This document shows, piece after piece, positions 15,494 through 47,296 of a stretch of DNA of 64,000 nucleotides (positions within the stretch are counted from its first letter, which is position 1; each line of letters starts with the position of its first letter). The notes under the pieces are model-generated. The model searched no databases, was not told the origin of the DNA, and saw only the letters and a list, made by a program, of their open reading frames with translations. This DNA comes from an uncultured Acidobacteriota bacterium. Its GTDB lineage: Bacteria > Acidobacteriota > Terriglobia > Terriglobales > Acidobacteriaceae. The translations under genes were made by a program, and so were the position numbers. The stretch is from assembly GCA_963800405.1 (NCBI GenBank), contig CAWDBW010000071.1:557-64556 (forward strand), in the 5' to 3' direction.

Positions 15494-18400
15494 CTAAAAT
15501 AAGAGTTTCAACGCCACCTGGATCACCCGAGGACCCACATCCGACTGGACTTGCCCGAAGGTCGGCGATTCAATGTCGCTAACCGGCAAGCGGAAATTGG
15601 TGTGGTTCAGCAGATTGAACAGTTCACCACGGAATTGAATCTCTTTCGATTCCGTCAGCCGAATATTCTTGAAGGCCGAGGCATCCCAGTTCATGTATCC
15701 CGGACCCTGAACTACGTTGCGGCCTTCGTCGCCGAACACTTCGAACCGGCCCAGAGGGTCCGGTTGGAGTTGCTGGAAGGCGCTAACGTTGAACCATTCC
15801 TGCGGCGTGCGCGGACCAGAGTTTGGATTGCCAATCACGTTTGGACGGTTCGCGGAAAATCCCGTGATCTCCGGCGCCTGCCCTTGCAGCGAAGGATCGC
15901 CTGAGTCGTATACCGTGAACGGGCCGCCACTCATCGCAGTCACAATTCCGTTCAACTGCCAGTTGCCGAGAATGTGCCCATACCATGTACTTGAGTGCTG
16001 CAAGAATGGAAGGCTCCACTGGTAACTCAACACGAAGCGTTGGTGGGAATCGAACATGGACCGGCCGCGCTCGGCCGCAAGATCAAATGGATTCTGCGCC
16101 AGATCATTTTCTCCTGCTACGTCCTGTGCTGCCGACCCAGTAATGTTGAAGGAAGAAACGTCATCGATGGAGTGTGACCAGGTGTAAGACGCAAGGAAGG
16201 ATAACCCGTGGCCAAAACGTTTGCGCAGGCTCGCTTGCAGGGCGTTGTAGCTCGAGTTTGCGATACTCGCGATCTCGCCGACCGAACTGTAGATGCAATT
16301 TCCCGCAGGCTCCGCCAGCGTACATCCAGAATAGAGACGACGGTAATTCACATTGTTTTCGGTGGAATTCAGACACGGGTTTGCTACAGAACAGCCCGAG
16401 CCAGTCGTGGTAAACCCGGGGACAAAAACGGGCGGGTCGCCTTCAATGAATCGCGGCAGCCGCACACCAGTCGTGCCCACGTACCCGATCTGCAAGAGCC
16501 AGTCTTGGCCAAGAGACCGTTGGATGTTTAGATTCCAATCCTGCGCGTAGGGCAGATGCAGATTGCGCGCGACCACCAGCAGCGTCATCGGTTCGGGGAA
16601 AGCCTGACTGAAAGGATTCGGAGTATAAAACGGATTGGCGAATGAGTTGACGGGAAAACTTATCTGCTGAGTCTTCAGGTAAGGAGGCGCGCTAACAGGA
16701 TCTTGCAGCGGCCCACCTTCTCCGGTGTAGTAAGGCTCGTAGAAAATACCGTAGGCCGCACTTACCACCGTTTTGGAATCTCCACGCGGGTCCCACGCAA
16801 CGCCAAAGCGTGGAGCGAACGCGGTCTTCTGGGTTGGAATCAAACCCGCGGGCACGCCGGGATCACCGGGATAGAGAAGTCCCACCGGAGCATCGGGAAG
16901 CACTTGGGATTGTGCTCCCGGAACGAAGAGATTCACCTCGTTGTTGTTCTCAGTGGAGGGGAAGGGCACCTCGTAACGAAGTCCCAGGTTCAGCGTCAGG
17001 CGAGAATTGACCTTGTAGGTATCCTGGCCGTAAGCATCTAGAGCTCGGTCGCGGATTTCACGAGCGAAGTTACCGCCGCCTTGCAGGAAGACCACTGGAT
17101 TGCCGGACAGGAAGCTGGCAAATCCGTCGCTGTAGGGAAAGTTGGCGAACACAAAAAAGCCGTTGCTGGCGATACCCTGCAACGCGTTGATCTGATCCCG
17201 CCGATAGCCTCCGCCAAATTCCAGCTCGTGGCGGCCGTGGATCCAGCTCAGAGAACCGGAGACATCAAATGTATTCTGAAATGTGTTGCGGGGGCCCGTG
17301 ATGGGGTCGCCCACCGAAGCGTATCCGCCGACCTGAACGAACGGCGGTCCGGCAGCCGAAGGCAGCGTCGGCGCGTACTGAAAGCCGAAGTCCGCCGGCG
17401 ACTCGTGGTTCAGGTGCTCGTCCAGCAGAAAAGTATTGCGCAGGAAGGAAAAGCGCGCGACGCCAATGGTGGTAGGCGAAAAAATGTGGGTCTCTTGCGT
17501 GACGAAGTTCTGCGCGCGGTCATACTCGCCCACGGGAAAGCCGGGAACATTGGCGCCCACTGGCGACAGAGGATCCGTCGTCGGTCCGCTGCTGTACATG
17601 TAGCGGAAATTCAACGTGTCGGCACTGGAAAGGTACTGATCCAGGCGCAGTCCGAACTGGTCGTTATTCTCGCTCAGGGTCTGCGTGGCGATGAACCCGT
17701 TTTCTCCAACATTGGGCAACGGGAAAAGCGGCAAGACATTCGTCGCCGTCGGATCGATGGGCGTGAACAGCGTCATCTGGTTGAACGGCACCGGGGTTCC
17801 AAAAAACGTAAGTTGCCCATTCGGGTTACTGCACAGACCGGTGGTCTGGTCAAACGTGGCGTTGAGGTCGGTACACTCTTCCCCGAAGTTGCCCGTCCGT
17901 TCCGCCGCGGAAGGCACGGTTGCCGGCACGGTCTCCCCCTGCCGGTTGCGAAAGCCTTCGTAATATCCGAAAAAGAAAGTCTTGTCCCTGACAATCGGCC
18001 CGCCGAACGTGGCGCCGAATTGATTCTGCTTCAAGGGCTGCACGCTCTGCGTGAAGTAATCGGACGAATCCATGGCATCGTTGCGTAGAAATTCCCAGAC
18101 CGCCCCGTGAAATGAATTGGACCCTGACCGGGTCACGATATTCGTCGTGGAGCCGGTGTTACGTCCGAACTCCGCATTCGCGTTGTGGCTAAGAATTTTG
18201 AACTCGGCAATCGCATCGATCGGTGGCTTGAGCACAAATCCGCCGTCCACGGAGCTCACATTGTCGGCACCATCGATCAGGAAATTATTCGATTCCGGCC
18301 GCTGGCCGTCCACGGCGTAGCCCTGATTCTGCCGCGCCGGACCGCCAGCTTCGAGTAGACCAGGAGTCAGGGGCACGACGCCGGGCTGAAGCAGCCCAAG

Positions 18401-18889
18401 CTGAGAAAAGTTTCGGCCATCCAGCGGGAGGTCGAGAATCTCGCGCTCCATTACCGTCTGCCCCAAACTGCTGACTGTGCTCTGCACTAAGGCGGCATCC
18501 GCGCTTACGTCAACTTGCTGCGTCTCCGCTCCCAGCTTGAGGTGAATGCCGATCGTCGCCGTTTGGTTTACATCCAGCGAGATCCCCTGCTGCACATACT
18601 TCTGGAAGCCCTTCGCCTGGACCTCCAGCTGGTAATGTCCGATGGGCAGTTCGACCAGCAAGTACTCTCCCTGCCGGCCTGTGACTGCTGCGCGTGTCAG
18701 TCCGGTTTCGATCTGCCGGGCGGTGACTGTAGCGGCTTGGACGATGGCCCCGCTGGGATCCAAAACGCTTCCGCGGATGTTCGCTGTGATCTGCTGTCCG
18801 GCAACATTCAGAGCTGCGACGTTCAGCCCGGCAACGACAGAGACCAGCGCCAGGGCCAGCCTTCTCAATTTGCTCATACGTCTCCCCAT
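15494..18889 (-). CDS. TonB-dependent receptor-like outer-membrane protein with an N-terminal carboxypeptidase-regulatory-like domain
   Basis: 1131 aa. Signal peptide, then ITANIRGSVLDPSGAIVQAATVTARQIETGLT...GEYLLVELPIGHYQLEV. C-terminal beta-barrel ends ...RVIQVALKLLF. ATG 18877 (GGAGA upstream) is an alternative start. Confidence 0.85.
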   Translation of the reverse strand: MGRRMSKLRRLALALVSVVAGLNVAALNVAGQQITANIRGSVLDPSGAIVQAATVTARQIETGLTRAAVTGRQGEYLLVELPIGHYQLEVQAKGFQKYVQQGISLDVNQTATIGIHLKLGAETQQVDVSADAALVQSTVSSLGQTVMEREILDLPLDGRNFSQLGLLQPGVVPLTPGLLEAGGPARQNQGYAVDGQRPESNNFLIDGADNVSSVDGGFVLKPPIDAIAEFKILSHNANAEFGRNTGSTTNIVTRSGSNSFHGAVWEFLRNDAMDSSDYFTQSVQPLKQNQFGATFGGPIVRDKTFFFGYYEGFRNRQGETVPATVPSAAERTGNFGEECTDLNATFDQTTGLCSNPNGQLTFFGTPVPFNQMTLFTPIDPTATNVLPLFPLPNVGENGFIATQTLSENNDQFGLRLDQYLSSADTLNFRYMYSSGPTTDPLSPVGANVPGFPVGEYDRAQNFVTQETHIFSPTTIGVARFSFLRNTFLLDEHLNHESPADFGFQYAPTLPSAAGPPFVQVGGYASVGDPITGPRNTFQNTFDVSGSLSWIHGRHELEFGGGYRRDQINALQGIASNGFFVFANFPYSDGFASFLSGNPVVFLQGGGNFAREIRDRALDAYGQDTYKVNSRLTLNLGLRYEVPFPSTENNNEVNLFVPGAQSQVLPDAPVGLLYPGDPGVPAGLIPTQKTAFAPRFGVAWDPRGDSKTVVSAAYGIFYEPYYTGEGGPLQDPVSAPPYLKTQQISFPVNSFANPFYTPNPFSQAFPEPMTLLVVARNLHLPYAQDWNLNIQRSLGQDWLLQIGYVGTTGVRLPRFIEGDPPVFVPGFTTTGSGCSVANPCLNSTENNVNYRRLYSGCTLAEPAGNCIYSSVGEIASIANSSYNALQASLRKRFGHGLSFLASYTWSHSIDDVSSFNITGSAAQDVAGENDLAQNPFDLAAERGRSMFDSHQRFVLSYQWSLPFLQHSSTWYGHILGNWQLNGIVTAMSGGPFTVYDSGDPSLQGQAPEITGFSANRPNVIGNPNSGPRTPQEWFNVSAFQQLQPDPLGRFEVFGDEGRNVVQGPGYMNWDASAFKNIRLTESKEIQFRGELFNLLNHTNFRLPVSDIESPTFGQVQSDVGPRVIQVALKLLF

Positions 18890-19249: not shown

Positions 19250-20651
19250 ATGGCCAACGCCGCAACCGTAGCTCCTGCTGCTTCTGGGAAAAATGCGTTA
19301 CGGAGGGAACTGGGTCTCGCCTCAGCGACTGCGGCTGTTGCCGGCGAGTCCATCGCCGTCGGCATTTTTCTTACTCCGGCCAGCATGGCTAAGTCGCTGG
19401 GGTCTCCCTTCTGGCTTCTTGTCGTCTGGCTCATCGTGGGGGCCATGACCTTGAGTGGCGCTCTGTGTTACGGCGAACTCGCGGGACGGTTTCCGCGCTC
19501 CGGAGGTCTCTACATTTATCTGCAGGAGATCTACGGCCGAAGAATCGCGTTTCTTTACGGCTGGATGTGCCTTCTCGTTCTCGATCCCGGACTGACTGCC
19601 GCTCTGGCCACGGGAATCGCAGGATATGCAGCATACATTTTTCACTGGTCTGCTCTCACCATCAAGCTTGCGGCTGCGGCCATGATCTGGACGCTCTGCT
19701 TCACTAACATCCTGAGCATTCGCGTGAGCGCCGGATTCCTGCGGTGGATCACCGGGCTGAAACTCGCCGTCCTCGCCCTGCTGACCATTTGGGCGGTAGT
19801 CTTTCGTCTGGGGGCATGGTCGAATTTCGTTCCCTTTATCGATCGCCGCCCGGGATCCTTGCCCATTGCTTCCAGCCCTGGCGGCAGCTATGGTGGGAGC
19901 TTTTTTTTCCTTCGGCGGTTGGTGGGATGTCAGCAAAATTGCCGGAGAAGTGCGGGATCCCGGCCGTGTGTTGCCGCGCGCCCTGCTCTATGGTGTGTTG
20001 ACGGTCACTGGAGTCTACATTCTGGTAAGTATGGTTTTCTGGTACGTGGTCCCGCTCGACCAGGTCACGTCGGATGTTACTTTTGTGGCTCAGGCCGGCG
20101 ATAAATTGTTTGGCCCGGCGGGCGGAATCATCTTCGCCGCTATTGTGATGCTGTGCGTACTCGGCGGCCTGGCCGCGTTCATGATGTCCGCTCCCCGGGT
20201 TTATTACGCCATGGCACAAGATGGCTTGTTTCTTCGTTCCGTGGCAAAACTGCATCGCCAATTCAACACGCCTGCGAATGCGATTCTGATTCAGGGCATC
20301 ATCGCCTGCGTTCTGGTCGGTGTAGGCACTTTCCAGCAGATCATTTCCTATATCATCTTCGCCGCGGTTGGTTTTATTGGATTGGCAGCGGCTGGACTAT
20401 TTGTACTGCGGCGTGGTGACCGCGCGAGCGGCAGTTCCGTCGTCATAGCTTCGGAGGCCATGGCTCCGGAGGTCCTGGCTCCGGTCATCCTGGCTCCGGG
20501 CTATCCCTTTACGCCCCTGGCGTTCTTGTTGCTGATTGTCATCCTTCTGGTGTTGATCGGCGTAAAGAGCCCGCGGGAAGCGGCGTTCGGCGCTCTGGTA
20601 ATCGCCACGGGCTTGCCCGTGTATGAACTTTTCCGCCGCAGATCGGCTTGA
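19250..20651 (+). pseudogene. APC-superfamily amino-acid permease split over two frames (frameshift near 19860-19866)
   Basis: Frame 1 (19250->) reads ...GESIAVGIFLTP...LCYGELAGRFPRSGGLYIYL...NFVPFIDRRPGSLP. Frame +1 (from 19866) continues LLPALAAAMVGAFFSFGGWWDVSKIAGEVRDPGRVLPRAL... to 20651. Dropping the A at 19865 joins them. Confidence 0.8.
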
Positions 20652-20669
20652 CGAAATGGAAGATTCAGC

Positions 20670-21337
20670 ATGACGACAAAAAATAACGATGACGAGAACA
20701 CCAGGTCCAGAACACCCAGGTCCAGAACACCCAGGTCCCGAACGCCCAGCCTCCGGCGCCCAAGCCCGCTACAAAAATCCGAATCACCGAAGATGCCGAA
20801 GCCACCGGCGCGACCCTTGCCGCCTACGATTACTGGCGCGCCGACTCCGGCAGGCAACAAGTCCCCGGCATCATGAAGTGCTTCGGTGCGCGTCCTGACT
20901 TCCTGCGCCAGGTAGTGGACTTCTCGAACACCATCCATTTCTCCGAAGGACATCTCACCCGCCGCCATAAAGAGATGATCGCTAGCTACGTCTCTTACCT
21001 GAATCGCTGTCCTTATTGACTGGACAGCCATGCTTACTTCCTGCGTGTTCAGGGAGCCACCGATCAATGCGTAAGCGCAATTCTCGAAGGCAAGTTGGAC
21101 GAGGCCGGCCTGACAGTGGCGGAGCGCGGGTTGCTGGATTACGTCAAAATGATTACCGAAGCCGCCTATCGCTCCACCGCTGAGGACGTTCAGAGGCTGC
21201 GAGACGCCGGCTGGAAAGAAGATCAGATCGCGGAAGCTGTGTACATTACCGCCATGTTCGCATTCTTCAACCGCGTAGCAGACGCCTTTGGCGTTCCCGC
21301 ACAGAACTATCTTGAAAAGGGAAAAATGACGCCCTAA
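20670..21337 (+). CDS. AhpD/carboxymuconolactone-decarboxylase-family peroxidase-related protein. It has an in-frame TGA at the CxxC motif (candidate Sec) and a 1-nt deletion in its N-terminal repeat
   Basis: Frame 20693-21337 reads ...KIRITEDAEATGATLAAYDYW...HLTRRHKEMIASYVSYLNRCPY*LDSHAYFLRV...AEAVYITAMFAFFNRVADAFG. The only ATG with an RBS (20670, GGAAGA) is in the -1 frame. Confidence 0.7.
20697..20755 (+). repeat. 15-nt tandem repeat (AACACCCAGGTCCAG) x3-4 in the 5' end of the CMD-family gene. The first unit is 14 nt
   Basis: Units are aacaccaggtccag / aacacccaggtccag / aacacccaggtcccg / aacgcccagcctccg. Confidence 0.9.
21037..21056 (+). promoter_or_regulatory. Candidate bacterial SECIS hairpin
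   Basis: CUUCCUG-CGUGUU-CAGGGAG: a 7-bp stem (one G-U pair) and a 6-nt loop containing GU. The stem starts 17 nt after UGA 21017-21019. Confidence 0.4.
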
Positions 21338-21482
21338 GCGCCCTCGCAGTGGTCCGAAAAGGATCGCGTCATGGGAAATCTCTCGCTGACCATCGCTGAG
21401 ATTCTTCCCGAGTGAAAGACAATAAGAACTCCTTGCGACCTCTGATATAACATCGTGCAGCAGAAGTGTCTGGGAGGGCCAA

Positions 21483-22793
21483 TTGGCCAAGAAAACGATC
21501 CCCCAACGAGAATCCGCGGCTGCCGCAGAAGCCACCGTACCCAGCCGGGTGTTGGGCATTGTGCTCGCTGGAGGGAAAGGAACCCGGCTGTTTCCCCTCA
21601 CCCGCGAACGCGCCAAGCCTGCGGTTCCCTTCGGCGGCAAATACCGGATCATCGATTTCGTCCTCAGCAATTTCATCAATTCCGGAATCTACTCGATTTA
21701 CGTGCTCACTCAGTTCCGCAGCCAATCGCTGCTGCAGCATCTGAGTGAGGGATGGCAGTTCGGCGGGATGCTGAAGAGCCACTTCATCATCAACGTGCCC
21801 GCCCAGATGCGCATGGAGAACGAAGTCTGGTATCAGGGAACGGCCGACGCCATCTTCCAGAACATGAACCTGATCGAGCAGTCCGATCCGCACCTTGTGG
21901 CCATCTTTGGCGGCGACCATATCTATCGCATGAACGTCGCCAGCATGGTCGACTTCCATAAGGCGAAGCACGCGGAAGTCACGGTTGCCGCCATCCCGGT
22001 TCCCAAGGTTCATGCCGCCGAACTCGGTGTGATTGAGGCCAACGATGAAGGACGCATCATGGGTTTTCACGAAAAGAAGCCAGATGCGCCCACCATGCCG
22101 GGCGATTCCAGCCGCGTCTATGCTTCCATGGGCAACTACATCTTCTCCACGGACAGGCTGCTGCAACTGCTCAAGGCCGACGCGAAGAACCCCAACAGCC
22201 ATCACGATTTCGGCATGGACATCCTGCCCAAGCTCGCGGGCAACGCCCCCATCTACGCCTACAATTTCGAGGCGAACCGCATCCCCGGCGAGGCCGATGA
22301 CGCCATCCCTTACTGGCGCGATGTCGGCACCATCGAGGCCTTCTACGAAGCCAACATGGACTTGAACCATGTGAAGCCCGAACTCAATCTCTACAATCGC
22401 GAATGGCCGGTGCGCAGCACCAGCTATCCCGATCCTCCCGCGAAATTCGTATTCGACGATGAAGGCCGCCGCGGCGAAGCCCTCGACAGCATCATCTCCG
22501 GGGGATGCATTCTTTCCGGCGGACTGGTGCGCAAGTCCGTTCTCGGACGCGGGGTCCGTGTGCACACCGGCGCGCATGTCGAAGGCTGCGTCATTATGGA
22601 CAACTGCGACATCGGGCGCCGCGCCAAACTGCGCCGCGCCATCCTCGATAAGAACGTGCGCATTCCGCAGGACACCACCGTCGGCTACGATCACGACGCC
22701 GACCGCGCTCGCGGATGGCACGTTACCGAGTCCGGCATCGTCGTCATTGGACGGGAACACAGCTCCGTGCCCGTGGCGGCGCTGTTCACATGA
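21483..22793 (+). CDS. glgC: Glucose-1-phosphate adenylyltransferase
   Basis: VLGIVLAGGKGTRLFPLTRERAKPAVPFGGKYRIIDFVLSNFINSGI... followed by a C-terminal left-handed beta-helix region. 436 aa. Confidence 0.95.
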   Translation: MAKKTIPQRESAAAAEATVPSRVLGIVLAGGKGTRLFPLTRERAKPAVPFGGKYRIIDFVLSNFINSGIYSIYVLTQFRSQSLLQHLSEGWQFGGMLKSHFIINVPAQMRMENEVWYQGTADAIFQNMNLIEQSDPHLVAIFGGDHIYRMNVASMVDFHKAKHAEVTVAAIPVPKVHAAELGVIEANDEGRIMGFHEKKPDAPTMPGDSSRVYASMGNYIFSTDRLLQLLKADAKNPNSHHDFGMDILPKLAGNAPIYAYNFEANRIPGEADDAIPYWRDVGTIEAFYEANMDLNHVKPELNLYNREWPVRSTSYPDPPAKFVFDDEGRRGEALDSIISGGCILSGGLVRKSVLGRGVRVHTGAHVEGCVIMDNCDIGRRAKLRRAILDKNVRIPQDTTVGYDHDADRARGWHVTESGIVVIGREHSSVPVAALFT

Positions 22794-31690: not shown

Positions 31691-32581
31691 TCAGGAGGAT
31701 TGCAGGACCAGAAGTTTCACGTTCACGGTACCGTCCTTTGTCTTTCTCTCGCCCTCCAGGTCCTTCTTCAATCCCTCGGCGTTTCTTATGAGGTGTTGGG
31801 GGTCGTAGACGACGCACCACAGGGCATCGCACTCCGGGTGCTTTCGATAGTGCTCAATGTCGATAATTAGCTCGTTGCCAATCTTCGTGGCGTGGTTCGC
31901 ATCACGCACGAACTTCAGCTCAATCACGAGCCTGTGTGCGGGAAGAAGGAAATCCATCCGCGTGCTGGAGCCAGCCAAGCTGGGTGTGAACTCCTCGGGC
32001 CTGATGTCAGCGACCCACGGGCGCAACAGCGCGTGCAGCAAATCCTGAACGTCATACTCCGTGGAGAAGGTCAGGGCGACCGCGCCTTTCCGCCTTTGCG
32101 TCAACGGATGCATCGCTCTCCGAAGGTTCTTCAAGAGAACCAGCAGCAGCTCGTCGATGTCGCCGGGCTTCCTCGGGCCGCGCGCGCTGGCCGATGCAGG
32201 GTACGCCTCCTCTGGCGGTTGGCCGCTCGGCAACACGCGACCGCCACGGTAGTAGCGAAAGCCGTTCTCCTCTAACACCTTGACCACGCGCGCCCGGTCC
32301 TTCTTCCAGTCGCTGACTGAGTAGTCGTCGTTCGGGTCATCATCGTCCGGTTCGACGTCCATGAACTCTTCGAGGATGTTGCCCAGAACCGTGAGGCTGT
32401 CGACTGCGGGGTCGCTCCCCGCACGAAAAAGCCAATCTTTCCATTTGGTCGCGTGAGAAAGATTCGAGGGTTCGCCGGGTGCGCCCGACGAAACGAACAG
32501 AGCTTCGAGATTTGCGTGGGACCCACGCAGGACGGAGGCGACGGCGGCGCATACACCTCTCGACAATCGAACGTTCGTCAT
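31691..32581 (-). CDS. PD-(D/E)xK nuclease-fold protein with an uncharacterised N-terminal domain (candidate defence/Abi effector)
   Basis: C-terminal domain TEYDVQDLLHALLRPWVADIRPEEFTPSLAGSSTRMDFLLPAHRLVIELKFVRD has the E...D...ExK layout. Start taken at ATG 32581 (MTNVRLSRG...); the ORF is open to 32665. Confidence 0.6.
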   Translation of the reverse strand: MTNVRLSRGVCAAVASVLRGSHANLEALFVSSGAPGEPSNLSHATKWKDWLFRAGSDPAVDSLTVLGNILEEFMDVEPDDDDPNDDYSVSDWKKDRARVVKVLEENGFRYYRGGRVLPSGQPPEEAYPASASARGPRKPGDIDELLLVLLKNLRRAMHPLTQRRKGAVALTFSTEYDVQDLLHALLRPWVADIRPEEFTPSLAGSSTRMDFLLPAHRLVIELKFVRDANHATKIGNELIIDIEHYRKHPECDALWCVVYDPQHLIRNAEGLKKDLEGERKTKDGTVNVKLLVLQSS

Positions 32582-32714
32582 GCTCAGGAGTGATGCTACC
32601 AAACCAGTAGGCTTTACGCCCGGCATTGTGCCCTTAGTAAGTGTGTCTTTCGGTGCCCCGCACACTTACACACGGCACTTGCTTGGGTTTTGGGGCGGAG
32701 TGAACATCCGTCCC

Positions 32715-32999
32715 ATGATGAAAACCAAACAGCAAGCGGGCCGGGTCGGAGGGCAGGCGGTGACGCCTCGCAAATCCGAAGCGGCGCGGGAGAACGGGCA
32801 CCTCGGCGGACGCCCTTGCAAGGCCGCCATTACGTACAGCGAGGCCCGCACGCGGGTACTTGCGCTGGTCACGGACCTGAACACGATGCTGATGGAGCAC
32901 GCGGCCCGGCAGGAAAAGGACCCGACGAATTACGGGTACGCAGGCGACATGAATCACTACGCCGAGTTGCTCGAAGAACTTCTCGGTCGCCGCAAGTAA
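32715..32999 (+). CDS. Small basic protein with a GRVGG...AARENGHLGGRP motif (common in phage/plasmid accessory genes)
   Basis: ATG 32715 (MMKTKQQAGRVGGQAVTPRKSEAARENGHLGGRPCK...). Divergent from the nuclease-like gene. Confidence 0.5.
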   Translation: MMKTKQQAGRVGGQAVTPRKSEAARENGHLGGRPCKAAITYSEARTRVLALVTDLNTMLMEHAARQEKDPTNYGYAGDMNHYAELLEELLGRRK

Positions 33000-33069
33000 C
33001 GCGGGCCACGGGGCTGTTGAAGCAGCACCGTGACCCTTAACCAAGTACCGGGCGCGGAGGCCCGACAAA

Positions 33070-33363
33070 ATGGCTGTCACCAAGCATACCGCACGTCCAA
33101 TTTTCCACTACGTCCTGAAGAACCGCATCGTCGGCGGCGAGGTCTCGCTGCCAATCACGCGCGAAGAGGCGAGGCGGATAATCCGCAAGTGGTCGGTAGC
33201 GTTGCGGCACAGGCAGCGCGGTCACCGTACCCTTTTCCTGCTGGAAGTTCACCGGGGGCGGAAGTGGGACCGCCTGACTCTGGAAACACATCATCACAGA
33301 ACGCGGAAAAGGGTCATGGCGGAGGATTCCGCATGTGCTTCGAAGAAGTGGGTGACGGAATGA
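33070..33363 (+). CDS. Hypothetical basic protein
   Basis: 97-aa ORF. Its stop overlaps the start of the next ORF (ATGA at 33360-33363). Confidence 0.4.
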   Translation: MAVTKHTARPIFHYVLKNRIVGGEVSLPITREEARRIIRKWSVALRHRQRGHRTLFLLEVHRGRKWDRLTLETHHHRTRKRVMAEDSACASKKWVTE

Positions 33364-33509
33364 CCACGCGCGAAACCGTTAACGGAAGGCTGGCGACCGT
33401 CTCTCACCTGACGGAGGCGTGGGTGCCTTGCGCGCCGAAGGACGCTTCCATCGTGAAAGTGGTATTCGATGACGGGGAGGTACTCTTCGGCTTCGTAAAG
33501 GAGCACTGA
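33360..33509 (+). CDS. Hypothetical 49-aa protein, translationally coupled to 33070-33363
   Basis: MTTRETVNGRLATVSHLTEAWVPCAPKDASIVKVVFDDGEVLFGFVKEH. Confidence 0.35.
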   Translation: MTTRETVNGRLATVSHLTEAWVPCAPKDASIVKVVFDDGEVLFGFVKEH

Positions 33510-33572
33510 CGGGTCAGGCAAGCCCCACGGCCTCCGGTTCGCGCCGGGGGCCTTTCCCGTTTTGCGAACGCC

Positions 33573-33628
33573 GGGCCACGTGTGACTTCAGGCGCGTGAG
33601 GATGGCTGGGGTGGGCCGCCGATACCAC
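33573..33628. repeat. 56-bp direct repeat, copy B
   Basis: gggccacgTgtgacttcaggcgcgtgaggaTggctggggtgggccgccgataccac. Ends 3 nt before the stop codon of 33632-34717. Confidence 0.85.
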
Positions 33629-33631
33629 CGC

Positions 33632-34717
33632 TTACGACTTGGTCACCAGCAACGCTTCCTTGTCACCAATCCCGCTCGTGCGGGTCAGCAGAAACAACAC
33701 GGTGTCGCCGTTGCGTGCGGAGTAGGTTCGGTTCGCCTCGCTGACGCGCACGAGGGTGGTTTCGTCCGTGTGATTCCGAAGGTCCAGCGTCGGCGTGATA
33801 ATTCCCTCGCCGTTGCCGTTCGCTTCCAAGCCGGAGATGACTCCCGCGTACACGATGCCGTCGAATACGTGACCGAGGTCCCTGCTGGTGGGGAACAGCG
33901 TGGCCATCTGAGGCGCGGTCAACTGGTCGCCTGCGGAGTTCGCGGACAAGTCAGTCCCGTTAAAGCTTCCACCTCCTCCACCGCCCACGCCGATTGCGGT
34001 CGTGAGGTAGAAGGCTTGCCACAGCAGCGCGCCAACGCCGATGTTGTCACCCGTGGGTCCGCCGAAGTTCGTTTGCAGCGACGAGCTGGTCTCCACCAAC
34101 TGCGACTGCGCACCAATCGTGGCGGTCTTCGCGTTCAGGGTTGCGGTCGCCGCGCCGTCGAGCGTGTAACCAGATGACGTGTTTCCCGTCAGGAGCGCGG
34201 TGTCGGTCGTGAAGAGCGCGCCGACGCCCACGATGAATCCACCGTTGCCTTCCAGATACACGCCGGGGATGATGCTCGCGCCCGATAGCGGCTCGGTGAT
34301 TCCCGTCGCGGGCAGGCTGTAGTTTGCGGTCGATGCCGTGCTCAGCCCGTTCACCTCATAGCACGCGATGCCGACCTGACAGTTGCCTGCGGCTGAAATC
34401 GGCGCGAAGGTGAACGTCACCGATTCCGCTCCCGAGCTGGGCGTGATGGTAAAGACGCCGAGGAGGATGGTTTCATTGTCAGAAGCCGTTGGGTAGATTT
34501 CAACGATGGTCGGCGTCGAGCTGTTGCTTTGCGAATCCGTCACCGTGGCGAAGCCAGAGCCGTTCCCACCAAGGGACGCGCCGATACTGGCTGAGTAATC
34601 CACGGCCTGCACTGCGACGACGATTTTGTTCCCCGCTGTGATGTGCGAGGGGAAGGTTGCGGTAACCGTCGCTGCACCTGTGGCAAACGCGGTCACTTTC
34701 TGAACGATGCTGGACAT
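33632..34717 (-). CDS. Hypothetical Gly/Ser/Thr/Ala-rich protein (possible fibre/receptor-binding-like)
   Basis: 361 aa, beta-rich low-complexity composition with a GGGGGG tract. No recognisable motif. Confidence 0.55.
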   Translation of the reverse strand: MSSIVQKVTAFATGAATVTATFPSHITAGNKIVVAVQAVDYSASIGASLGGNGSGFATVTDSQSNSSTPTIVEIYPTASDNETILLGVFTITPSSGAESVTFTFAPISAAGNCQVGIACYEVNGLSTASTANYSLPATGITEPLSGASIIPGVYLEGNGGFIVGVGALFTTDTALLTGNTSSGYTLDGAATATLNAKTATIGAQSQLVETSSSLQTNFGGPTGDNIGVGALLWQAFYLTTAIGVGGGGGGSFNGTDLSANSAGDQLTAPQMATLFPTSRDLGHVFDGIVYAGVISGLEANGNGEGIITPTLDLRNHTDETTLVRVSEANRTYSARNGDTVLFLLTRTSGIGDKEALLVTKS

Positions 34718-34833
34718 GGTAAGGAAGCCCTCAGTGTCCCCGAAAGGTGTTAACCCCTTGCCGGGGAAAAAGCAGGCAGAGAAGGTCCTGACGAACCCCG
34801 ACGTGGTGGTCGTCTCCGTCCTGCGTTACGAAC

Positions 34834-35802
34834 TCAAGAAGCCTGCGCCTGCGAAGCCCCCGCGCCTGCGGTAGCTGGCCAGCCGTGCTCGGCGCGATAC
34901 CGGGCGATGAAGTCCTCGCGCTCCTTGCGGCGGTGGTAATACCTCCGCTTCTTCTCTGCATCAGCGGCGAGACGGGCACTGACGACGTCGTTCACGCCGG
35001 GCCGCATCACAATAATCTCCATCGTCGCCGGGTCCTGCTGCGGCGTCATCTGCTTGTAGGTCTTGTTGAGGCGGTGAAGAATCGCACGCACGTGCGGCGG
35101 TTTGAATCCGAACATTGCTCCGACGCCGACCGAATCCTGACCAACGTTGTAGGCTTGATAAAGCATCCCAAGGATGACGGCGGGCGCGTTCTCCTGCGTC
35201 AACCGAAGGTCGGTGTCGAGCGTTTCTATTGACCGCCTGAGCACACGCTGGCGGTCACCATCCACGTTCTTCGAAGCCACGAGTTCGTTGCAGAGTTCGT
35301 CCATCACCTTCAGCTTCGCGGGCAGCTTGGCACGCAGATGGTCACACGCGGTCTTCAACCGTTCGGCCTCTGTTCCCGTTGTCGACAGCCGCTGCTTTTT
35401 ACTGAAAGCGCGGGCTTCGAAGTACGCGACCAACACGGCGCGCACGGTCGATTGGTTTCGCGTCCATTCGGGAATGCCACGGCAGAGAGAACGTCTTCCG
35501 TGCCGGGCGGTGGACGTCTGCATGCGGGTGTAGTCCTCGAACGCAATTCCGTTCGAGACGATTTCACCGTCAGCCTCGACGTGAGCAGAGATGGGAACTT
35601 CGTGGCGGCCAAAAAACTGATGTGCTTCCGGTTCCGAACCGTGAGCGGCTGCGGGTGGGCAAAAAGTTATTGGGGTCATCAGAACACTGAGAAACTGTGA
35701 GGGGGTCTCCGCCAGCGCGCGGACAGTTTCTTCACGCGCGCCAACGGAAGGTTGAGAAATTGTTGGGGGCTTTCGGTCGCCCCCGGACCAACTCTTCTGC
35801 AT
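34834..35802 (-). CDS. Hypothetical protein with a possible HTH near residue 230 (GMLYQAYNVGQDSVGVGAMFGFKPPHVRAILHRLNK)
   Basis: 322-aa ORF. ATG 35679 is an alternative start. Confidence 0.5.
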   Translation of the reverse strand: MQKSWSGGDRKPPTISQPSVGAREETVRALAETPSQFLSVLMTPITFCPPAAAHGSEPEAHQFFGRHEVPISAHVEADGEIVSNGIAFEDYTRMQTSTARHGRRSLCRGIPEWTRNQSTVRAVLVAYFEARAFSKKQRLSTTGTEAERLKTACDHLRAKLPAKLKVMDELCNELVASKNVDGDRQRVLRRSIETLDTDLRLTQENAPAVILGMLYQAYNVGQDSVGVGAMFGFKPPHVRAILHRLNKTYKQMTPQQDPATMEIIVMRPGVNDVVSARLAADAEKKRRYYHRRKEREDFIARYRAEHGWPATAGAGASQAQAS

Positions 35803-35923
35803 TCCATCCGCAAGAGTCCCAGAGATGGTCGAGGCACGACCCGCACCGCGTTACCGCGTATGCTGGGTCCCCGCTCGACAACGGGCACGCCCCCAGCTCT
35901 CGCCGGGGGAACGTCGTAAAAAC

Positions 35924-36049
35924 TTATTTGCGGTTCGGGTTCGCGGGCGTCGGCGCGGGCGACTTGAACGGCAAGGGCGGCGCGGGTCGCACGCCGGAGT
36001 TCGGTTGCTGATATCCGTTGTCGGGATTCGGTTCGTTATTGATTTCCAT
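35924..36049 (-). CDS. 41-aa proline-rich micro-protein (paralog of 36192-36317)
   Basis: ATG 36049 preceded by AAGGAGA. MEINNEPNPDNGYQQPNSGVRPAPPLPFKSPAPTPANPNRK. Confidence 0.45.
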   Translation of the reverse strand: MEINNEPNPDNGYQQPNSGVRPAPPLPFKSPAPTPANPNRK

Positions 36050-36191
36050 GACGGAGTCTCCTTTTAATTTTGGGTCCGCAACCAGCCAGCCTCTCGACTT
36101 TGCTGGTTGCGGAGTTATCGCGCGGGGGCTCAGGAGAAAGCGGCCTCCGACTGCCCACGCTTCTTTTTGTCTCAGTCGGTAGACAAGCTTT

Positions 36192-36317
36192 TTATTTCTT
36201 CGGCTGCGGGCGCGCGGGCGCTGGTACGGTCGGCTGCGATTGCGGCCTGCCCCACGGCGGAACCGTCGACGGGTGAACGTTGGGGGTGAGAATGTTGGGG
36301 CGGTTGTCGTCGCTCAT
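36192..36317 (-). CDS. 41-aa proline-rich micro-protein
   Basis: ATG 36317 preceded by GAGGAG. MSDDNRPNILTPNVHPSTVPPWGRPQSQPTVPAPARPQPKK. Confidence 0.45.
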   Translation of the reverse strand: MSDDNRPNILTPNVHPSTVPPWGRPQSQPTVPAPARPQPKK

Positions 36318-36321
36318 GTTG

Positions 36322-36770
36322 TTAGCTCCTCTTGCTCTGAATTCTTTTCGTTGCGGCGGCGTGATGCTCGGCGCGGTAAACTTCGCCCAGCCTCTTCGCT
36401 TCCAGATACTTTCCGAACTCTGCATTGAGCGGGGTGACGATAGCGCGCAACTCGGCCAGCTCTTTTCGAACCTGCTCCAACAGCGCGGCGGAGTCAGGAC
36501 CAGCCGGGCCACGGTCGCCACGGTCGCCCTTGATGCTTTCGCCCGGTCGCCCTTGCGGGCCGGGTGTGGTTGACGGCTCCCCGCGTTCGCCGCGTTCACC
36601 ACGCTCACCGCGCGCCCCTGTGATGCTCGCGCCATCTTTGCCCGGCTTGCCTTCCTTCAGCTCGATGGTCTTGATTTCGCGCTGGAGTTCGCCGACCAGA
36701 CTCTCAAGCTGGTTGAGACGCCGATGCACGGAGAATTTGTTGACATCGAGTTTTGTCAGCGTCGCGGTCA
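36322..36770 (-). CDS. Coiled-coil protein with collagen-like G-x-y repeats
   Basis: GKPGKDGASITGARGERGERGERGEPSTTPGPQGRPGESIKGDRGDRGPAGP. GTG 36770 lies 1 nt after the upstream stop; the ORF is open to 36894. Confidence 0.6.
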
Positions 36771-36772
36771 CG

Positions 36773-37186
36773 TTAGTTCCTGATTTCCCACGGGAAAAGT
36801 TCTGCCGTGACAATGGCAGCGTTGTGCGCGGCCTGTTCGTTTTCCGCAGCCAGCGCGCGGCGGTCGACTTCGACTTGACGCCCGAGGTTCGCAAGCTTCA
36901 TCCGCAAGTCTTGGTCACTGACGTACACGCGTCCTGTCTGCTGGCGATATCTCTCTTCGAGAGAAATCTGCTTCACGCGCGCGGGCGCGGCAGAGCGAAT
37001 TTCAACACCCACGGGCGCGCCGGGGATTGCGCTGTCGAACGTCCAGACGTTTTTATTCGTCCTGAGATTGGCGGCGCGCAGCTCGGCGATTTTTGCCGCG
37101 AAGATTGGGGGACAAGAATCGGGGACGGCTGCCCACCCTCGGGCTTCGTTGCGCTCGTTCATGTTTCTGATTTCAGTTGCGGTCAT
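36773..37186 (-). CDS. Hypothetical protein
   Basis: ATG 37186 preceded by AGGAGA. The upstream 171 codons of the 308-aa ORF are an R/S/P-rich shadow frame overlapping 37242-37724. Confidence 0.55.
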   Translation of the reverse strand: MTATEIRNMNERNEARGWAAVPDSCPPIFAAKIAELRAANLRTNKNVWTFDSAIPGAPVGVEIRSAAPARVKQISLEERYRQQTGRVYVSDQDLRMKLANLGRQVEVDRRALAAENEQAAHNAAIVTAELFPWEIRN

Positions 37187-37241
37187 AAAATTTCTCCTGC
37201 TCCAGCTCTCCCCACTGTTACTCGAAAAGTGTTCCGCCCTT

Positions 37242-37724
37242 TTACAGAGGCTTGCTTCCGAAAACCGCCGACATGACGGTGCGATGTCCCGCCCACTTGT
37301 CCTTGCGCTCTTGCTCCTCCTGAGACTTCTTCGCGGCAGCGATTGCGACAGCGTTCGCTTCAGGCGAGAGAGACGCGGCGTCCAAAAATTGCTGCGTGAT
37401 ACTGCGCGGACAGTCGGCTGGCGGTGTATCGAAGAAGAAAGTGTCAGAGCCGACGCGCTTGATGACGGCGACCACTTTCCCGCTCTGGTGGATGCCCCAC
37501 TCGACGCCCGAGACACCTGCGACGGTGTCGTGAGCGTCAGGAACGGTCGCGGTCGCGGCCTGCTCGTTACGCGCGGCCAGCCATTCCTTCGAACCACGCG
37601 CAGGCATGGGCACGGCTTTCGCGGAGCCCTGCGCGATGAGAACCTGAGCAACGTGAGCTGGTAGGTTGGTGATGGTATTGCGGAGAGATGGGTCGGCAAC
37701 GAATTCGGTGTACTGGATTTTCAT
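37242..37724 (-). CDS. Hypothetical protein
   Basis: ATG 37724 (MKIQYTEF...) preceded by GAGGA. Confidence 0.55.
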   Translation of the reverse strand: MKIQYTEFVADPSLRNTITNLPAHVAQVLIAQGSAKAVPMPARGSKEWLAARNEQAATATVPDAHDTVAGVSGVEWGIHQSGKVVAVIKRVGSDTFFFDTPPADCPRSITQQFLDAASLSPEANAVAIAAAKKSQEEQERKDKWAGHRTVMSAVFGSKPL

Positions 37725-37799
37725 ACTGTCCTCATTGAAAAAGGATTTATCGTTCAAGGCTGTATTCCGCCTCAGTCTTACAACCGCGTGTGACGGCAT

Positions 37800-38024
37800 C
37801 TACTGGACGAACCGTGACGCAGACTTCGCCACTTGCAACGGATACTTTTTCATCGCCTCAACGAAGGCGGCAGAGTGTTCGAGGATGGTCTTCGCCGCGT
37901 CCATAGGAACAAGCGGCTCCAGACCCAGCTCGTTGCACGCGTCGTTGACGGCGCAGATTGCCGCGATGAGTTTTTCCTCTTTTGTGACCGACCACTTCGG
38001 CTTCTTCTCTTTCGGTTTCCTCAT
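37800..38024 (-). CDS. Hypothetical protein
   Basis: 74 aa, 4-nt overlap with the terS stop. Confidence 0.5.
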   Translation of the reverse strand: MRKPKEKKPKWSVTKEEKLIAAICAVNDACNELGLEPLVPMDAAKTILEHSAAFVEAMKKYPLQVAKSASRFVQ

Positions 38025-38575
38025 TGGATTCCTTCCGCTGTGACCAGCAGCCTGTCAAAGTCTTCTTCGGGGTCCTCGGCGGGCGGCTTGACCGCTTCGG
38101 GTTCGCGCGAAAGCAAAGCAGCATCCTCGGTCGACAGTGCGGGCTGTTCATTTTTCGGGGGCTTCGTCAGCTTGCGGCTGACCGGGGTCGCACTCAACTG
38201 CACGAGGTACGCGCGCATCTGGGACTCCAGCCTTGCGGCAATTTTCGACGCTGGGGATTCCTCAACTTTTATGTGCTCGTTGTTGTTCTTGTCCAGCCAC
38301 GAAGTTTCACTCAGCGGGTTCGCGGCGGCCATCGCTTCGACCTTGCGCCAGCGGGCGTAGATGCGAACGTAGATTTCCAGCGTCGATGCGTCGGCCTTCG
38401 TCAGTTGCCTGCGCTTGCAGAGCTTCGGCACGAGACGTCGCCACTCAGCCTCGGCGACAGGGCACAAATCCGCGGGCATTTTCGGTCGGCCACTGGCGAA
38501 CTCGGGTTCGGGTGACCACGCGGGCTTGGTGCCGTTCAAAACGTGCGTCGCTATGTCCTTGCGGTCGGTCGGCAT
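38021..38575 (-). CDS. Phage terminase small subunit, P27 family
   Basis: ...GRPKMPADLCPVAEAEWRRLVPKLCKRRQLTKADASTLEIYVRIYARWRKVE...LESQMRAYLVQLSATPVSR matches the P27 TerS pattern as I recall it. Confidence 0.75.
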   Translation of the reverse strand: MPTDRKDIATHVLNGTKPAWSPEPEFASGRPKMPADLCPVAEAEWRRLVPKLCKRRQLTKADASTLEIYVRIYARWRKVEAMAAANPLSETSWLDKNNNEHIKVEESPASKIAARLESQMRAYLVQLSATPVSRKLTKPPKNEQPALSTEDAALLSREPEAVKPPAEDPEEDFDRLLVTAEGIQ

Positions 38576-38790
38576 CAGCGCGTCTCCTGATTGGGCGCGA
38601 ACAGGACAGGCTGGCGGGTCACCACGACCTTGCGCTGGTCCGGGGTCAGCGTGTCCATGAACGCATTGTGGCGAAGGGCACGCCTGATAACTTCAGCTAC
38701 GGGCGCACCGCTTTCGGCAGCGATGCCCTTGATGCGCGCGGCGAGGGCGTCCTCGGCGTGAAAAACAAATCTGGTTTTCGTGGTAGCCAC
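38575..38790 (-). CDS. Ribbon-helix-helix (CopG/Arc-like) protein
   Basis: 71 aa. TRFVFHAEDALAARIKGIAAESGAPVAEVIRRAL. Overlaps the terS start by 1 nt. Confidence 0.55.
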   Translation of the reverse strand: MATTKTRFVFHAEDALAARIKGIAAESGAPVAEVIRRALRHNAFMDTLTPDQRKVVVTRQPVLFAPNQETR

Positions 38791-39331
38791 TGGTGGGCCT
38801 CCTGTCTCTGTTGCCCACAGGTGTGACGGCCTCCATAAGCTGCTTATCGGGTCATCAGGCGCGCCCCAGCAAAGGGGCCGGATGTCAGGCCGATGTCACC
38901 CTGAAGGCGCAGGGCTGGGCGGGCAAGGGCCAAGGAAGCGGTCCTAAAGGGACCGGGGGGTCTCGCTATTCATGCGGGCGTGTCTCTCTAAGAGCGGCGC
39001 GCGCGGTATTGCGCGAGGGCGTGGGAAAAACATCCCGCCTACCCCCTACATAACACGGGGGTTAGCTCGGTCGGGGGCATCCAAGGCGCAACACGTAACT
39101 TGCTGAGTCGTTGGGAGTTAGGTCAGGTGATGAAGCAAAGGCGAAGGGTCGCTTGGGCGCGCCGGGGATTATGTCAACTGACAAAATGAGGCTGGATTAT
39201 GCTCGGTTCGCTGCGGAATACGACCAACGAAAGGGCCGACGCCGGGCCACGTTTGACGACACGTGGGCTCCTCACGCACGCGCCGGGGCGAAGGGTCACG
39301 TTGGTTTGCTTATCGCCCACGCGGTCACTGT

Positions 39332-39341
39332 GGGGGGGGGG
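39332..39341. repeat. G10 homopolymer tract inside the 630-bp non-coding gap between the HNH and RHH/terS genes
   Basis: ctgtGGGGGGGGGGttcac. Confidence 0.9.
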
Positions 39342-39422
39342 TTCACTGGTTATCGTGTGATTGGGTGTTGCTGGGTCTCTCTGCTCTACTTTCGTTTTTT
39401 TGACCTTACGCGGGCGCGCGGG

Positions 39423-39878
39423 TCACAGGTCTGGGATGCCTGACAGCAGCGCTGCGATGTCATCAGCGTTTTGTGGAATTAATTCGTTCAGTTTGCGAAC
39501 GTCAATGGTGGATGACTTGTACTGCTGTCCATCCTCACCTGTGACAGCAATGTGGTCTTCTTTTCCTGCCTTCGGTGCGTTGCCAAATCCTCGGTCATAA
39601 GTAGCGGTCGCCGTGTTGTGGCATGGGGCGCACAATCCCCTCAAATTTTCGGGCGACGAAAAAAGCACCCAACTCACCGTGCCGTCAGGCGCGATGAAAG
39701 GCTTGATGTGGTCGACGACCGCGCTCGCTCGCTTTTGACAAATTCTGCAAATGGGGTCGCGTTGAAGAATGAAGACACGTAATTGCTTCCGCCAGAAGGC
39801 TCGGTTCTCCCACGGATGTTTGCACGTCCGGGGAACCATCGGGCCGCCTTCGTACTCTTGCCAAGTGTCGTTGCTCAC
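39423..39878 (-). CDS. HNH endonuclease
   Basis: CRICQKRASAVVDHIKPF...NLRGLCAPCHN. Confidence 0.8.
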   Translation of the reverse strand: MSNDTWQEYEGGPMVPRTCKHPWENRAFWRKQLRVFILQRDPICRICQKRASAVVDHIKPFIAPDGTVSWVLFSSPENLRGLCAPCHNTATATYDRGFGNAPKAGKEDHIAVTGEDGQQYKSSTIDVRKLNELIPQNADDIAALLSGIPDL

Positions 39879-40183
39879 TGCGGTCTCTTCCTGCCGTCAG
39901 GTGTCTCCATGAGAAGCTTGCCGTGGCGGTCGTAAAAATCGTACTCGCCGGGCAGCGTCGGCGGGATGCCGCGTTCGGCTGCGTGATGGTTGCAGACGAC
40001 TTTTACTCCCAGCGCATCGGCCAACTCGGGCGATTGTGGGACATCGTTGATAACGCCCGCGCATTCGAAGCACACGGCATACTCTGTCCCCTCACTGCTA
40101 CCCACGAGAACGTCGGGTGGTGACCCAGCCATGACGTGGGCGCAAAGAAGGATTGCTGCTCGGCAATCGGGACTGTGACTCAT
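39875..40183 (-). CDS. Hypothetical Cys/His-containing protein
   Basis: 102 aa, 4-nt overlap with the HNH gene start. Confidence 0.5.
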   Translation of the reverse strand: MSHSPDCRAAILLCAHVMAGSPPDVLVGSSEGTEYAVCFECAGVINDVPQSPELADALGVKVVCNHHAAERGIPPTLPGEYDFYDRHGKLLMETPDGRKRPQ

Positions 40184-40242
40184 TGGCTTTTTCGCCTCCG
40201 GGGTCGTGTACTATACCGTCCTTCACTTCGGAAAGTGAAGTT

Positions 40243-40470
40243 CTATTTCCTCGGCCAAGGCAGACTTTCGATTTCGCTCTCGCCGCGAAGCATGGCAGCA
40301 ACGACTCGATGCGCGCCATCGATGAGCAATAAGTGACCAACATCCTCAACGTAAATCGGCGGGCATGTTGACGCGGGAAGTTCGGCGTACTTTTTGCAAA
40401 CGTCCGGGTCACGCATTAAGGCTTCGAGGATGTGGATGGAATTTCGCGCGACCAGCTCTGCGATTTTCAT
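40243..40470 (-). CDS. Small ParB-N-terminal-domain-like protein (tentative)
   Basis: ...PPIYVEDVGHLLLIDGAHRVVAAMLRG resembles the ParB/Srx DGxHR core. Confidence 0.4.
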   Translation of the reverse strand: MKIAELVARNSIHILEALMRDPDVCKKYAELPASTCPPIYVEDVGHLLLIDGAHRVVAAMLRGESEIESLPWPRK

Positions 40471-40733
40471 TGGAACCGAGTTCTCTGCGTTCCGCGTCCA
40501 AGCATGTACTCCTCGGCGCGGGTCATTGGGGGAACGGTGGATGCGTGTTGGGGGCGTCGAGAGGAGGCGAGTTCGTCGATGGTTTCCTCCACCGCGCTTT
40601 CCTTGCGACCGTACTCGTCGTAATACACTGCTCTGATTGTCATGGGATTTTTTGAAAGGCTGGGCTGGAGGTCATCGCCGCACTCCCACGGTGGTAAGAG
40701 TGTTCTCGGCTCTCTCCAGCCCACGTCACACAA
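40467..40733 (-). CDS. Hypothetical protein (start uncertain; ATG 40643 is an alternative)
   Basis: 4-nt overlap with the downstream gene. Confidence 0.35.
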   Translation of the reverse strand: MCDVGWREPRTLLPPWECGDDLQPSLSKNPMTIRAVYYDEYGRKESAVEETIDELASSRRPQHASTVPPMTRAEEYMLGRGTQRTRFQ

Positions 40734-40797
40734 CAGCTTTCCACTGACTTGCGTCTCGCTTTATAGCTGTCAATGTATCCGTGAGGTGTGACCGGGG

Positions 40798-41130
40798 TTA
40801 TCTCTGCCGTTTCGGTCGGTTGGTGCTGCTGCGGACAACGCTGACGGCCTCACCGTCCAACTTCACTGGCTCCAAAATCCAGTTCAGGATTTCGACCAAA
40901 ATGTCCTCCGTGACGGAGAAGATGGCGCAGGCGTGAAAGTCATATGTCCGAACGCTTATCAGGCTCGGCGGAATGTTCAGACCGGACTGCTGGTAAAGGT
41001 CTGCGCTCAGGCTTTCGGCGGTGGTTCCCTTTGGAAGATGACGGATGGTTAACCACGTGCCGAGTGGCAGGGTTTGCTTCGCGTTCGGTACGGCTGCGTT
41101 CATTTCTGGGCTCCCAGTCGATTTCCTCAT
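40798..41130 (-). CDS. Hypothetical protein (ATG 41103 is an alternative start with GGGAG upstream)
   Basis: 110-aa ORF in the island chain. Confidence 0.45.
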   Translation of the reverse strand: MRKSTGSPEMNAAVPNAKQTLPLGTWLTIRHLPKGTTAESLSADLYQQSGLNIPPSLISVRTYDFHACAIFSVTEDILVEILNWILEPVKLDGEAVSVVRSSTNRPKRQR

Positions 41131-41166
41131 CCACGTACAACGTGACGCACGGCGGTATTCGCGGCC

Positions 41167-41340
41167 TTAGCACGCGCCCCCGCTCTTCAGCGTTCTCTGC
41201 CACTTCGGTACGGATTCGAGGAGGGCCTTCGTCTCGATAAACGAATCGATGACTTCGGGAGCGACTCCCAACTCGGTAAGGCGGTCTTCGAGTTCTTCGG
41301 GGTCGGAGGGCAGTAACTCTGTCGTCTTTTCCTTAAGCAT
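41167..41340 (-). CDS. Hypothetical acidic 57-aa protein
   Basis: MLKEKTTELLPSDPEELEDRLTELGVAPEVIDSF... The ATG overlaps the end of the upstream ORF. Confidence 0.35.
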   Translation of the reverse strand: MLKEKTTELLPSDPEELEDRLTELGVAPEVIDSFIETKALLESVPKWQRTLKSGGAC

Positions 41341-44890: not shown

Positions 44891-44910
44891 CTTTTTAGTT
44901 CTCCTTTTTG

Positions 44911-47248: not shown

Positions 47249-47296
47249 CGGGCCTGCACGAGACTCGCGCAAACCCGCATGGATACAAGCGATTTC

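Follow-up and report, generated by a model that had tools for sequence, protein, structure and literature searches.

Selenoproteins of the AhpD-like family (COG2128/YciW, TIGR01926), which carry selenocysteine (Sec) in a CxxU motif, were first described by the Sargasso Sea and GOS selenoproteome surveys (PMC1088965, PMC2398784), and "AhpD-like 1, COG2128, CxxU" is among the most abundant selenoprotein families of the GOS survey (PMC2398784). The family appears as "AhpD-like (COG2128)" in a 2006 bacterial list (PMC1794560) and as "AhpD-like protein, TIGR01926, CxxU" in the table of a 2026 review (PMC13188914). Selenoproteins are present in Acidobacteria (PMC1794560). Among the Terriglobia, the cultured bacterium Occallatibacter riparius is classed as Sec-utilizing by a criterion that requires SelB, or SelA together with SelD (PMC12013277), and its AhpD-like protein, which contains the stretch ...SYLNRCPYULDSHAYFLRVQGA..., is a known selenoprotein (PMC12013277 Data S1).

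Here we describe a gene from an uncultured Terriglobia bacterium, found in a 64-kb stretch of DNA that was analysed as a whole and is referred to below as the window. From sequence comparisons, we put the probability at about 0.9 that this gene is the ortholog of the catalogued AhpD-like selenoprotein (CMD, TIGR01926/COG2128, CxxU) and that its UGA is read as Sec. The family has been catalogued since 2005, and the finding, although correct, is not new. The window gene shares with the family a TIGR01926 match above cut-off, a predicted Sec in C-x-x-U followed by x-x-x-H, a SECIS directly after the UGA, and an abundance of Cys homologs. The reference protein MCB9421940.1 is a distant sequence with CHYU, whereas the window gene belongs to a Terriglobia clade with CPYU; nothing about it is different in kind. 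It is 67% identical over 186 residues to the ortholog from O. riparius, a member of the same class, and the stretch around Sec is the same in both. The O. riparius gene, however, is complete and comes from a cultured isolate, while the window copy has a low-complexity N-terminal extension, a 15-bp repeat, and a frameshift (Table 1).

The frame at positions 20693-21337 of the plus strand contains a single internal stop, the TGA at 21017-21019, and terminates at a TAA. In translation, SYLNRCPY directly precedes the TGA and LDSHAYFLRV directly follows it (KEMIASYVSYLNRCPY and LDSHAYFLRVQGAT, respectively). The redox motif comprises C (21008-21010), P, Y, U (21017-21019), L, D, S, and H (21029-21031), which reproduces the C-x-x-C-x-x-x-H arrangement of AhpD proteins. 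C106, Y108, L110, D111, S112, and H113 are invariant in an alignment of 21 protein sequences. When Cys is put in place of the stop, the product matches the Pfam CMD profile PF02627 (E=5e-17; 62 bits against a cut-off of 23) and the NCBIfam profile TIGR01926, "peroxidase-related enzyme" (96.7 bits, above the cut-off of 81.8). Because the TIGR01926/CMD match runs over residues 30-204 of 214, and for TIGR01926 from profile position 4 to 176 of 178, with aligned sequence on both sides of the TGA, the CMD/AhpD domain spans the stop. An earlier note on this DNA had proposed one AhpD/CMD frame broken only by a TGA, with that TGA at the family's redox Cys and the C-x-x-[C/U]-x-x-x-H spacing kept. The translation and the two profile matches bear out the first proposal, and the Cys found at this position in paralogs and homologs bears out the second. 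As the note also anticipated, standard gene calling yields fragments only: it splits the gene in two, and the next in-frame start after the TGA is at 21095. A 392-residue antisense ORF (20501-21679, minus strand) covers the entire selenoprotein gene and is very likely a spurious open frame, as is common in DNA of 58% GC.

Table 1 Features of the AhpD-like selenoprotein locus and its upstream neighbours (positions in the window).
Feature	Position	Strand	Remarks
TonB-dependent-receptor-like outer-membrane protein	15494-18889	-	Pfam OMP_b-brl_4 and CarboxypepD_reg
APC-family amino-acid permease	19250-20651	+	Upstream of the AhpD-like gene; frameshift at ~19858-19872
True start ATG (20670) and first 11 codons (MTTKNNDDENT)	20670-20702	+	Different frame from the gene body; start is 18 nt past the permease stop
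N-terminal half of the AhpD-like/CMD domain	20693-21016	+	Conserved TKIRITEDAEATG... to ...YLNRCPY; first motif Cys is TGT at 21008-21010; dN/dS ~0.06
15-bp tandem repeat, AGAACACCCAGGTCC	20695-20749	+	3.7 copies encoding QVQNT repeats; TRF period 15, 2% indels
Candidate 5' arm of a lower helix, UAUUGA	21014-21019	+	Invariant TAT plus UGA; in the MFE fold
UGA, predicted Sec codon	21017-21019	+	Second position of the redox motif C-P-Y-U-L-D-S-H; TGA in orthologs, Cys in paralogs
C-terminal half of the AhpD-like protein	21020-21337	+	LDSH... to ...GKMTP, TAA at 21335-21337; translation depends on decoding of the UGA
Upper stem-loop of the bacterial SECIS	21037-21056	+	Synonymous freezing; pairs conserved in 81/81
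Candidate 3' arm of a lower helix, UCAAUG	21064-21069	+	Codon bias at +15/+16 in Sec forms

The window protein is not a true AhpD, since it scores 20.2 bits against the TIGR00777 cut-off of 191.95. No gene for an AhpC/peroxiredoxin partner was found among the window genes scanned. It also scores 68.5 bits where 175 are required by NF041238 (AhpD_rel_CFYUT (seleno)protein), which describes a separate, though related, family of AhpD-type selenoproteins. Among solved structures, the nearest are AhpD-like and "uncharacterized peroxidase-related proteins" (2OYO, 2PRR, and 6K40), whose CxxC aligns to CPY[U]; 2OYO aligns to residues 23-181 (E=3.5e-16) and places its CLYC opposite CPY[U]. Mycobacterium tuberculosis AhpD (TIGR00777) and the structures 2OYO, 2PRR, 6K40, 3C1L, and 2PFX share with the window protein the CMD/AhpD fold and the C-x-x-C-x-x-x-H motif, but all of them are Cys proteins, whereas the window protein would carry Sec. 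In M. tuberculosis AhpD, we take the second-Cys position to be the attacking nucleophile, activated via the conserved His.

A scan with one genome per species recovered 80 orthologs, 80-89% identical and all from Terriglobia/Acidobacteriota MAGs, and a metagenome scan added 76 further TGA-containing copies, giving 157 orthologous DNA sequences with the window. The codon at the Sec column is TGA in 81/81 species sequences (the window and the 80 orthologs) and in 76/76 metagenome copies, loci L081 and L166 also having TGA there. At the same column, 21 paralogs have Cys (TGC or TGT), as do the more distant homologs P0045-P0118. The earlier note had asked whether homologs have Cys or Sec at this position, and the answer is Cys in paralogs and distant homologs and TGA throughout the orthologs, which is the Sec/Cys pairing expected of a bacterial selenoprotein gene. 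An in-frame ATG, GTG, or TTG lies ~100-110 codons upstream of the TGA in 80/80 orthologs, and the frame extends a further 105 codons past the TGA in 79 of these and 102 codons in the remaining one. Over 400 random ortholog pairs, dN/dS is 0.063 before the TGA and 0.083 after it. Protein conservation in the same frame thus continues past the UGA, as expected of a selenoprotein, and the value of 0.083 indicates that the downstream half is translated.

In L081 and 17 metagenome loci, a Cys paralog lies immediately upstream of the Sec form. These tandem pairs (L081:3001-4229; L086, L087, L090-L097, L099-L103, L105, and L163) combine a Cys form with CxYC and a Sec form with CPYU, ~620-650 nt apart, and belong to another Terriglobia lineage. 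The stop codon of the Cys paralog in L081 overlaps the start of the Sec form. In L106 and L107, the upstream paralog has TAT (Tyr) where the CxxC motif has its second Cys and would therefore be a redox-inactive or differently functioning copy beside the Sec form.

While the frame proposed in the earlier note holds for the domain and the TGA, the note overlooked that this frame has no start codon. It contains no ATG, GTG, or TTG before 20873, a position already inside the domain, and the true ATG, at 20670, belongs to another frame. An identical ATGACGACAAAAAATAAC, matching this ATG, opens the metagenome ortholog L166/P0008, and insertion of one C after 20702 produces a clean ORF of 222 codons (MTTKNNDDENTQVQNTQVQNTQVPNAQ...TKIRITEDAE...). 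The frameshift site is the first copy of the 15-bp repeat, which is 1 nt short (ACACC-AGG versus ACACCCAGG in the other copies). The repeat belongs to the low-complexity N-terminal extension; L166 lacks it, and no QVQNT repeat was found in any ortholog N-terminus. A programmed -1 frameshift was considered for the missing start and rejected: the one A-run that looks slippery, at 20678-20684, leads straight into TAA/TGA in the target frame, and no ortholog needs a frameshift. As assembled, the window copy cannot make the full protein because it has no in-frame start, and it is either mis-assembled or (very) recently inactivated.

The permease gene directly upstream, which probably forms one operon with the AhpD-like gene, is also interrupted. 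It consists of two overlapping ORFs split at a short C-run, which cover AA_permease_2 profile positions 1-173 and 191-405, and a tblastn search with the intact permease of L081 (455 aa) switches frame near 19858-19872. The two lesions could both be real, a 1-nt deletion at ~20700-20703 and a permease frameshift in a decaying operon, in which case the window copy would be a recent pseudogene of a genuine selenoprotein family. We judge this unlikely, though well worth weighing. The window is alone among 81 sequences in having no in-frame start upstream of the conserved N-terminal region, and with the permease frameshifted ~850 nt upstream, two indels cluster in one 2.1-kb operon. Neither of them falls in a long homopolymer (the runs are CC/CCC), and at least 10 other large window genes match Pfam profiles end to end. 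However, the gene has acquired no further stops, and its TGA, TAT, and SECIS are perfectly kept. It remains up to 89% identical to its orthologs, with a dN/dS of 0.04-0.10 against its closest relatives. Long-read MAGs, which many of the related genomes are, moreover commonly carry assembly and polishing errors at tandem repeats and short homopolymers.

The selenoprotein interpretation of the gene family is also supported at the RNA level. The earlier note had described a 7-bp stem with a 6-nt loop starting 17 nt after the UGA, and folding bears this out: CUUCCUG (21037-21043) pairs with CAGGGAG (21050-21056) around the loop CGUGUU (21044-21049). The criteria of bSECISearch reportedly place the apical loop ~16-37 nt from the UGA, with a G within the first two loop bases. 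In the window, the loop begins 24 nt after the UGA, its second base is G, and the arms of the stem are frozen in Sec forms only. The note's further suggestion to fold the region after the UGA gave a divided result. The isolated hairpin (26-nt core) has a free energy of -8.6 kcal/mol and stands out from shuffled sequences (z=-2.0), but the MFE of the wider 57-64-nt stretch is not better than that of shuffles. Thermodynamics alone would therefore not single out the hairpin; the comparative data do. Rfam searches returned no relevant match, either over the whole window at gathering thresholds or over 20950-21150 at E values up to 10.

To follow selection on the RNA, we computed synonymous-codon entropy over 140 degenerate codons whose amino acid is conserved throughout the 81 sequences, with the Cys paralogs as control. 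Synonymous variation is zero or near zero in only 6 of the 140 codons (-1, +6, +7, +8, +11, and +12, counted from the UGA). Five of these, TAC(+6), TTC(+7), CTG(+8), CAG(+11), and GGA(+12), lie in the arms of the hairpin, and the remaining one is TAT(-1). In the loop, the third positions of codons +9 (CGT/CGG) and +10 (GTT/GTC/GTA) are variable. The 76 metagenome Sec forms have the same codons frozen. In contrast, the equivalent codons are free among the 21 Cys paralogs: Phe is TTT or TTC at 10:11, all six Leu codons occur, CAA and CAG are at 14:7, and all four Gly codons are used. The constraint is thus a property of the Sec forms and operates at the RNA level. All seven stem pairs are kept in 81/81 sequences, the single change being a U-A to U-G replacement in L044. 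Since the stem is invariant, neither RNAalifold nor pair counting detected covariation in it, and the RNA-level support accordingly comes from synonymous-site freezing and not from compensatory changes.

In the fdhF-type SECIS of E. coli, as in the window, a hairpin with a G/U apical loop at a fixed distance lies in the coding sequence immediately 3' of the UGA, and the UGA itself may sit in a lower helix. The window element differs in having an unrelated sequence, a 7-bp stem with no evident bulged U, and no matching Rfam model. A candidate lower helix (21014-21019/21064-21069) would include the UGA. Its positions are paired in 92% of cells, with no compensatory changes and with up to 20% of sequences breaking a given pair. 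At codon -1, TAT is used by 156/156 Sec-form sequences that have Tyr there (81 + 75), whereas the Cys paralogs have TAC and TAT at 15:6; Tyr codons elsewhere, like those of the Cys paralogs, favour TAC over TAT. Further downstream, the Sec forms are biased toward GAT at +15 (65:12 in the species set and 62:2 in the metagenome set) and toward CAA at +16 (63:2 and 49:1), while the Cys forms are at ~1:1. A lower helix would explain both the invariant TAT and the GAT/CAA bias, and we treat it as a lead; the TAT before the UGA may reflect either its pairing in the lower helix or an influence of codon context on Sec insertion.

A co-oriented permease lies directly upstream of the AhpD-like gene in 40/74 orthologous loci, and a homolog of the TonB-receptor-like protein is nearby in 27/71 loci and also in L081. 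This neighbourhood is suggestive of a link with the AhpD-like gene, although it is not universal. A broader proposal would combine these leads: the Terriglobia gene would have a lineage-specific extended SECIS, with the UGA and the preceding UAU in the lower helix, and would form a module with the co-oriented permease and the TonB-dependent receptor for substrate uptake and redox processing. We consider this combination improbable.

Farther along, the window carries a probable integrated mobile element or prophage remnant (31691-47372). It includes a DpnII/MboI-type restriction endonuclease (31691-32665, minus strand) and small phage-like genes at 37.7-42.2 kb, among them a terminase-small-subunit-like ORF (38021-38575) and an HNH-like ORF (39423-39878), both identified by eye. 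A 669-residue protein without a Pfam hit (42247-44256) follows, and a tyrosine integrase (46091-47248) abuts a tRNA-Thr(CGT) gene (47297-47372). Frameshifts were considered as the reason for the lack of long ORFs at 37.7-42.2 kb and rejected, given the small phage-like genes there.

Two other readings of the TGA itself have to be weighed against decoding as Sec. If it were a true stop, arising from a nonsense mutation or a sequencing error or marking the end of a genuine short gene, the downstream sequence would be untranslated or a separate gene. Standard gene calling, with its two fragments, fits such a reading, and termination at UGA always competes to some extent with Sec insertion. Nevertheless, the TGA is kept in 157/157 orthologous sequences from independent assemblies, and the 105 downstream codons stay in the same frame under a dN/dS of ~0.08. 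The next in-frame start in the window comes only at 21095, the match to the family profile extends across the TGA, and the paralogs have an unbroken frame with Cys in its place. The possibility, raised in the earlier note, that close homologs genuinely end here is contradicted by the 80/80 orthologs that continue for another 102-105 codons. TGA conservation together with downstream selection effectively refutes this reading, and we regard a true stop as very improbable.

Decoding of TGA as Trp or Gly under genetic code 4 or 25, which JGI calls with W imply and which the W at the Sec column of the closest database proteins (P0001-P0044) would fit, can be dismissed almost entirely, because TGA is the stop of 9/24 Pfam-supported window genes and the code is therefore not reassigned, the homologous residue is Cys and neither Trp nor Gly, and a dedicated hairpin would be needless. 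The W is instead a gene-calling artefact. Some of the calls with W also run beyond the true TGA stop: the DNA of L166 (149-811) has TGA twice, as Sec codon and as natural stop, and its JGI call read through each, adding ...TPWVWQVI after its own stop. Reading TGA as Trp on short contigs has in this way placed false sequences in protein databases.

Decoding of the UGA as Sec would require that the genome encode SelA, SelB, SelD, and tRNA-Sec. None of selA, selB, selD, or tRNA-Sec was found within the 64-kb window, where the only tRNA is the tRNA-Thr. ARAGORN detected no tRNA-Sec in the window and 81 loci, and tblastn with E. coli SelA and SelB as queries detected no selA or selB in the window or in the loci (1.6 Mb of ortholog flanks). 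By tblastn and profile search, selD is present on the ortholog's contig in 11 of 80 related loci, ~9-10 kb away. In L072, the SelD gene (19265-20335) lies ~9 kb from the ortholog, and its product scores 368.6 bits against the TIGR00476 cut-off of 125. The selD loci (L072, L031, L036, L038, L043, L047, L048, L051, L054, L059, and L067; also L082 and L084) have the gene in an origin-proximal cluster, gidB-parA-parB-bactofilin-selD...yidC-rpmH, in Candidatus Acidiferrales/Terriglobia genomes. In flanks from two related genomes, no selA or selB lies beside selD, and gidB, parAB, yidC, and rpmH are found instead.

Taken together, the conserved TGA, the Cys/Sec pairing, protein-level selection past this codon, selection acting on the hairpin RNA, and the selD genes of relatives strongly support the selenoprotein interpretation. 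In the mechanism we envisage, the mRNA would be translated from the ATG at 20670, and SelB with Sec-tRNA(Sec) would be recruited at the UGA by the downstream SECIS hairpin, possibly together with the lower helix that includes the UGA. Sec would then be inserted, and 105 more codons would be read to the TAA at 21337. The predicted product is a selenol/thiol oxidoreductase of ~220 residues, with Sec in place of the second Cys of C-x-x-C-x-x-x-H. Its mechanism would be a selenol/thiol redox couple, with peroxidase/reductase chemistry as the presumed activity.

The value of the finding lies mostly in annotation, and it poses no new biological question, since the family, its CxxU motif, and its occurrence in Acidobacteriota have already been published. 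Standard gene callers split the gene, public protein databases hold versions in which a false W stands at the catalytic position and the C-terminus is wrongly extended, and this assembly has a frameshift. Smaller leads come from the U that invariably precedes the UGA, from the possible lower helix, and from the Cys and Sec paralogs; lineages that carry both paralogs in tandem offer a natural comparison of the two chemistries. For the organisms themselves, an AhpD-like selenoprotein kept in at least 80 species of soil Terriglobia shows that an abundant group of soil bacteria commonly uses selenium.
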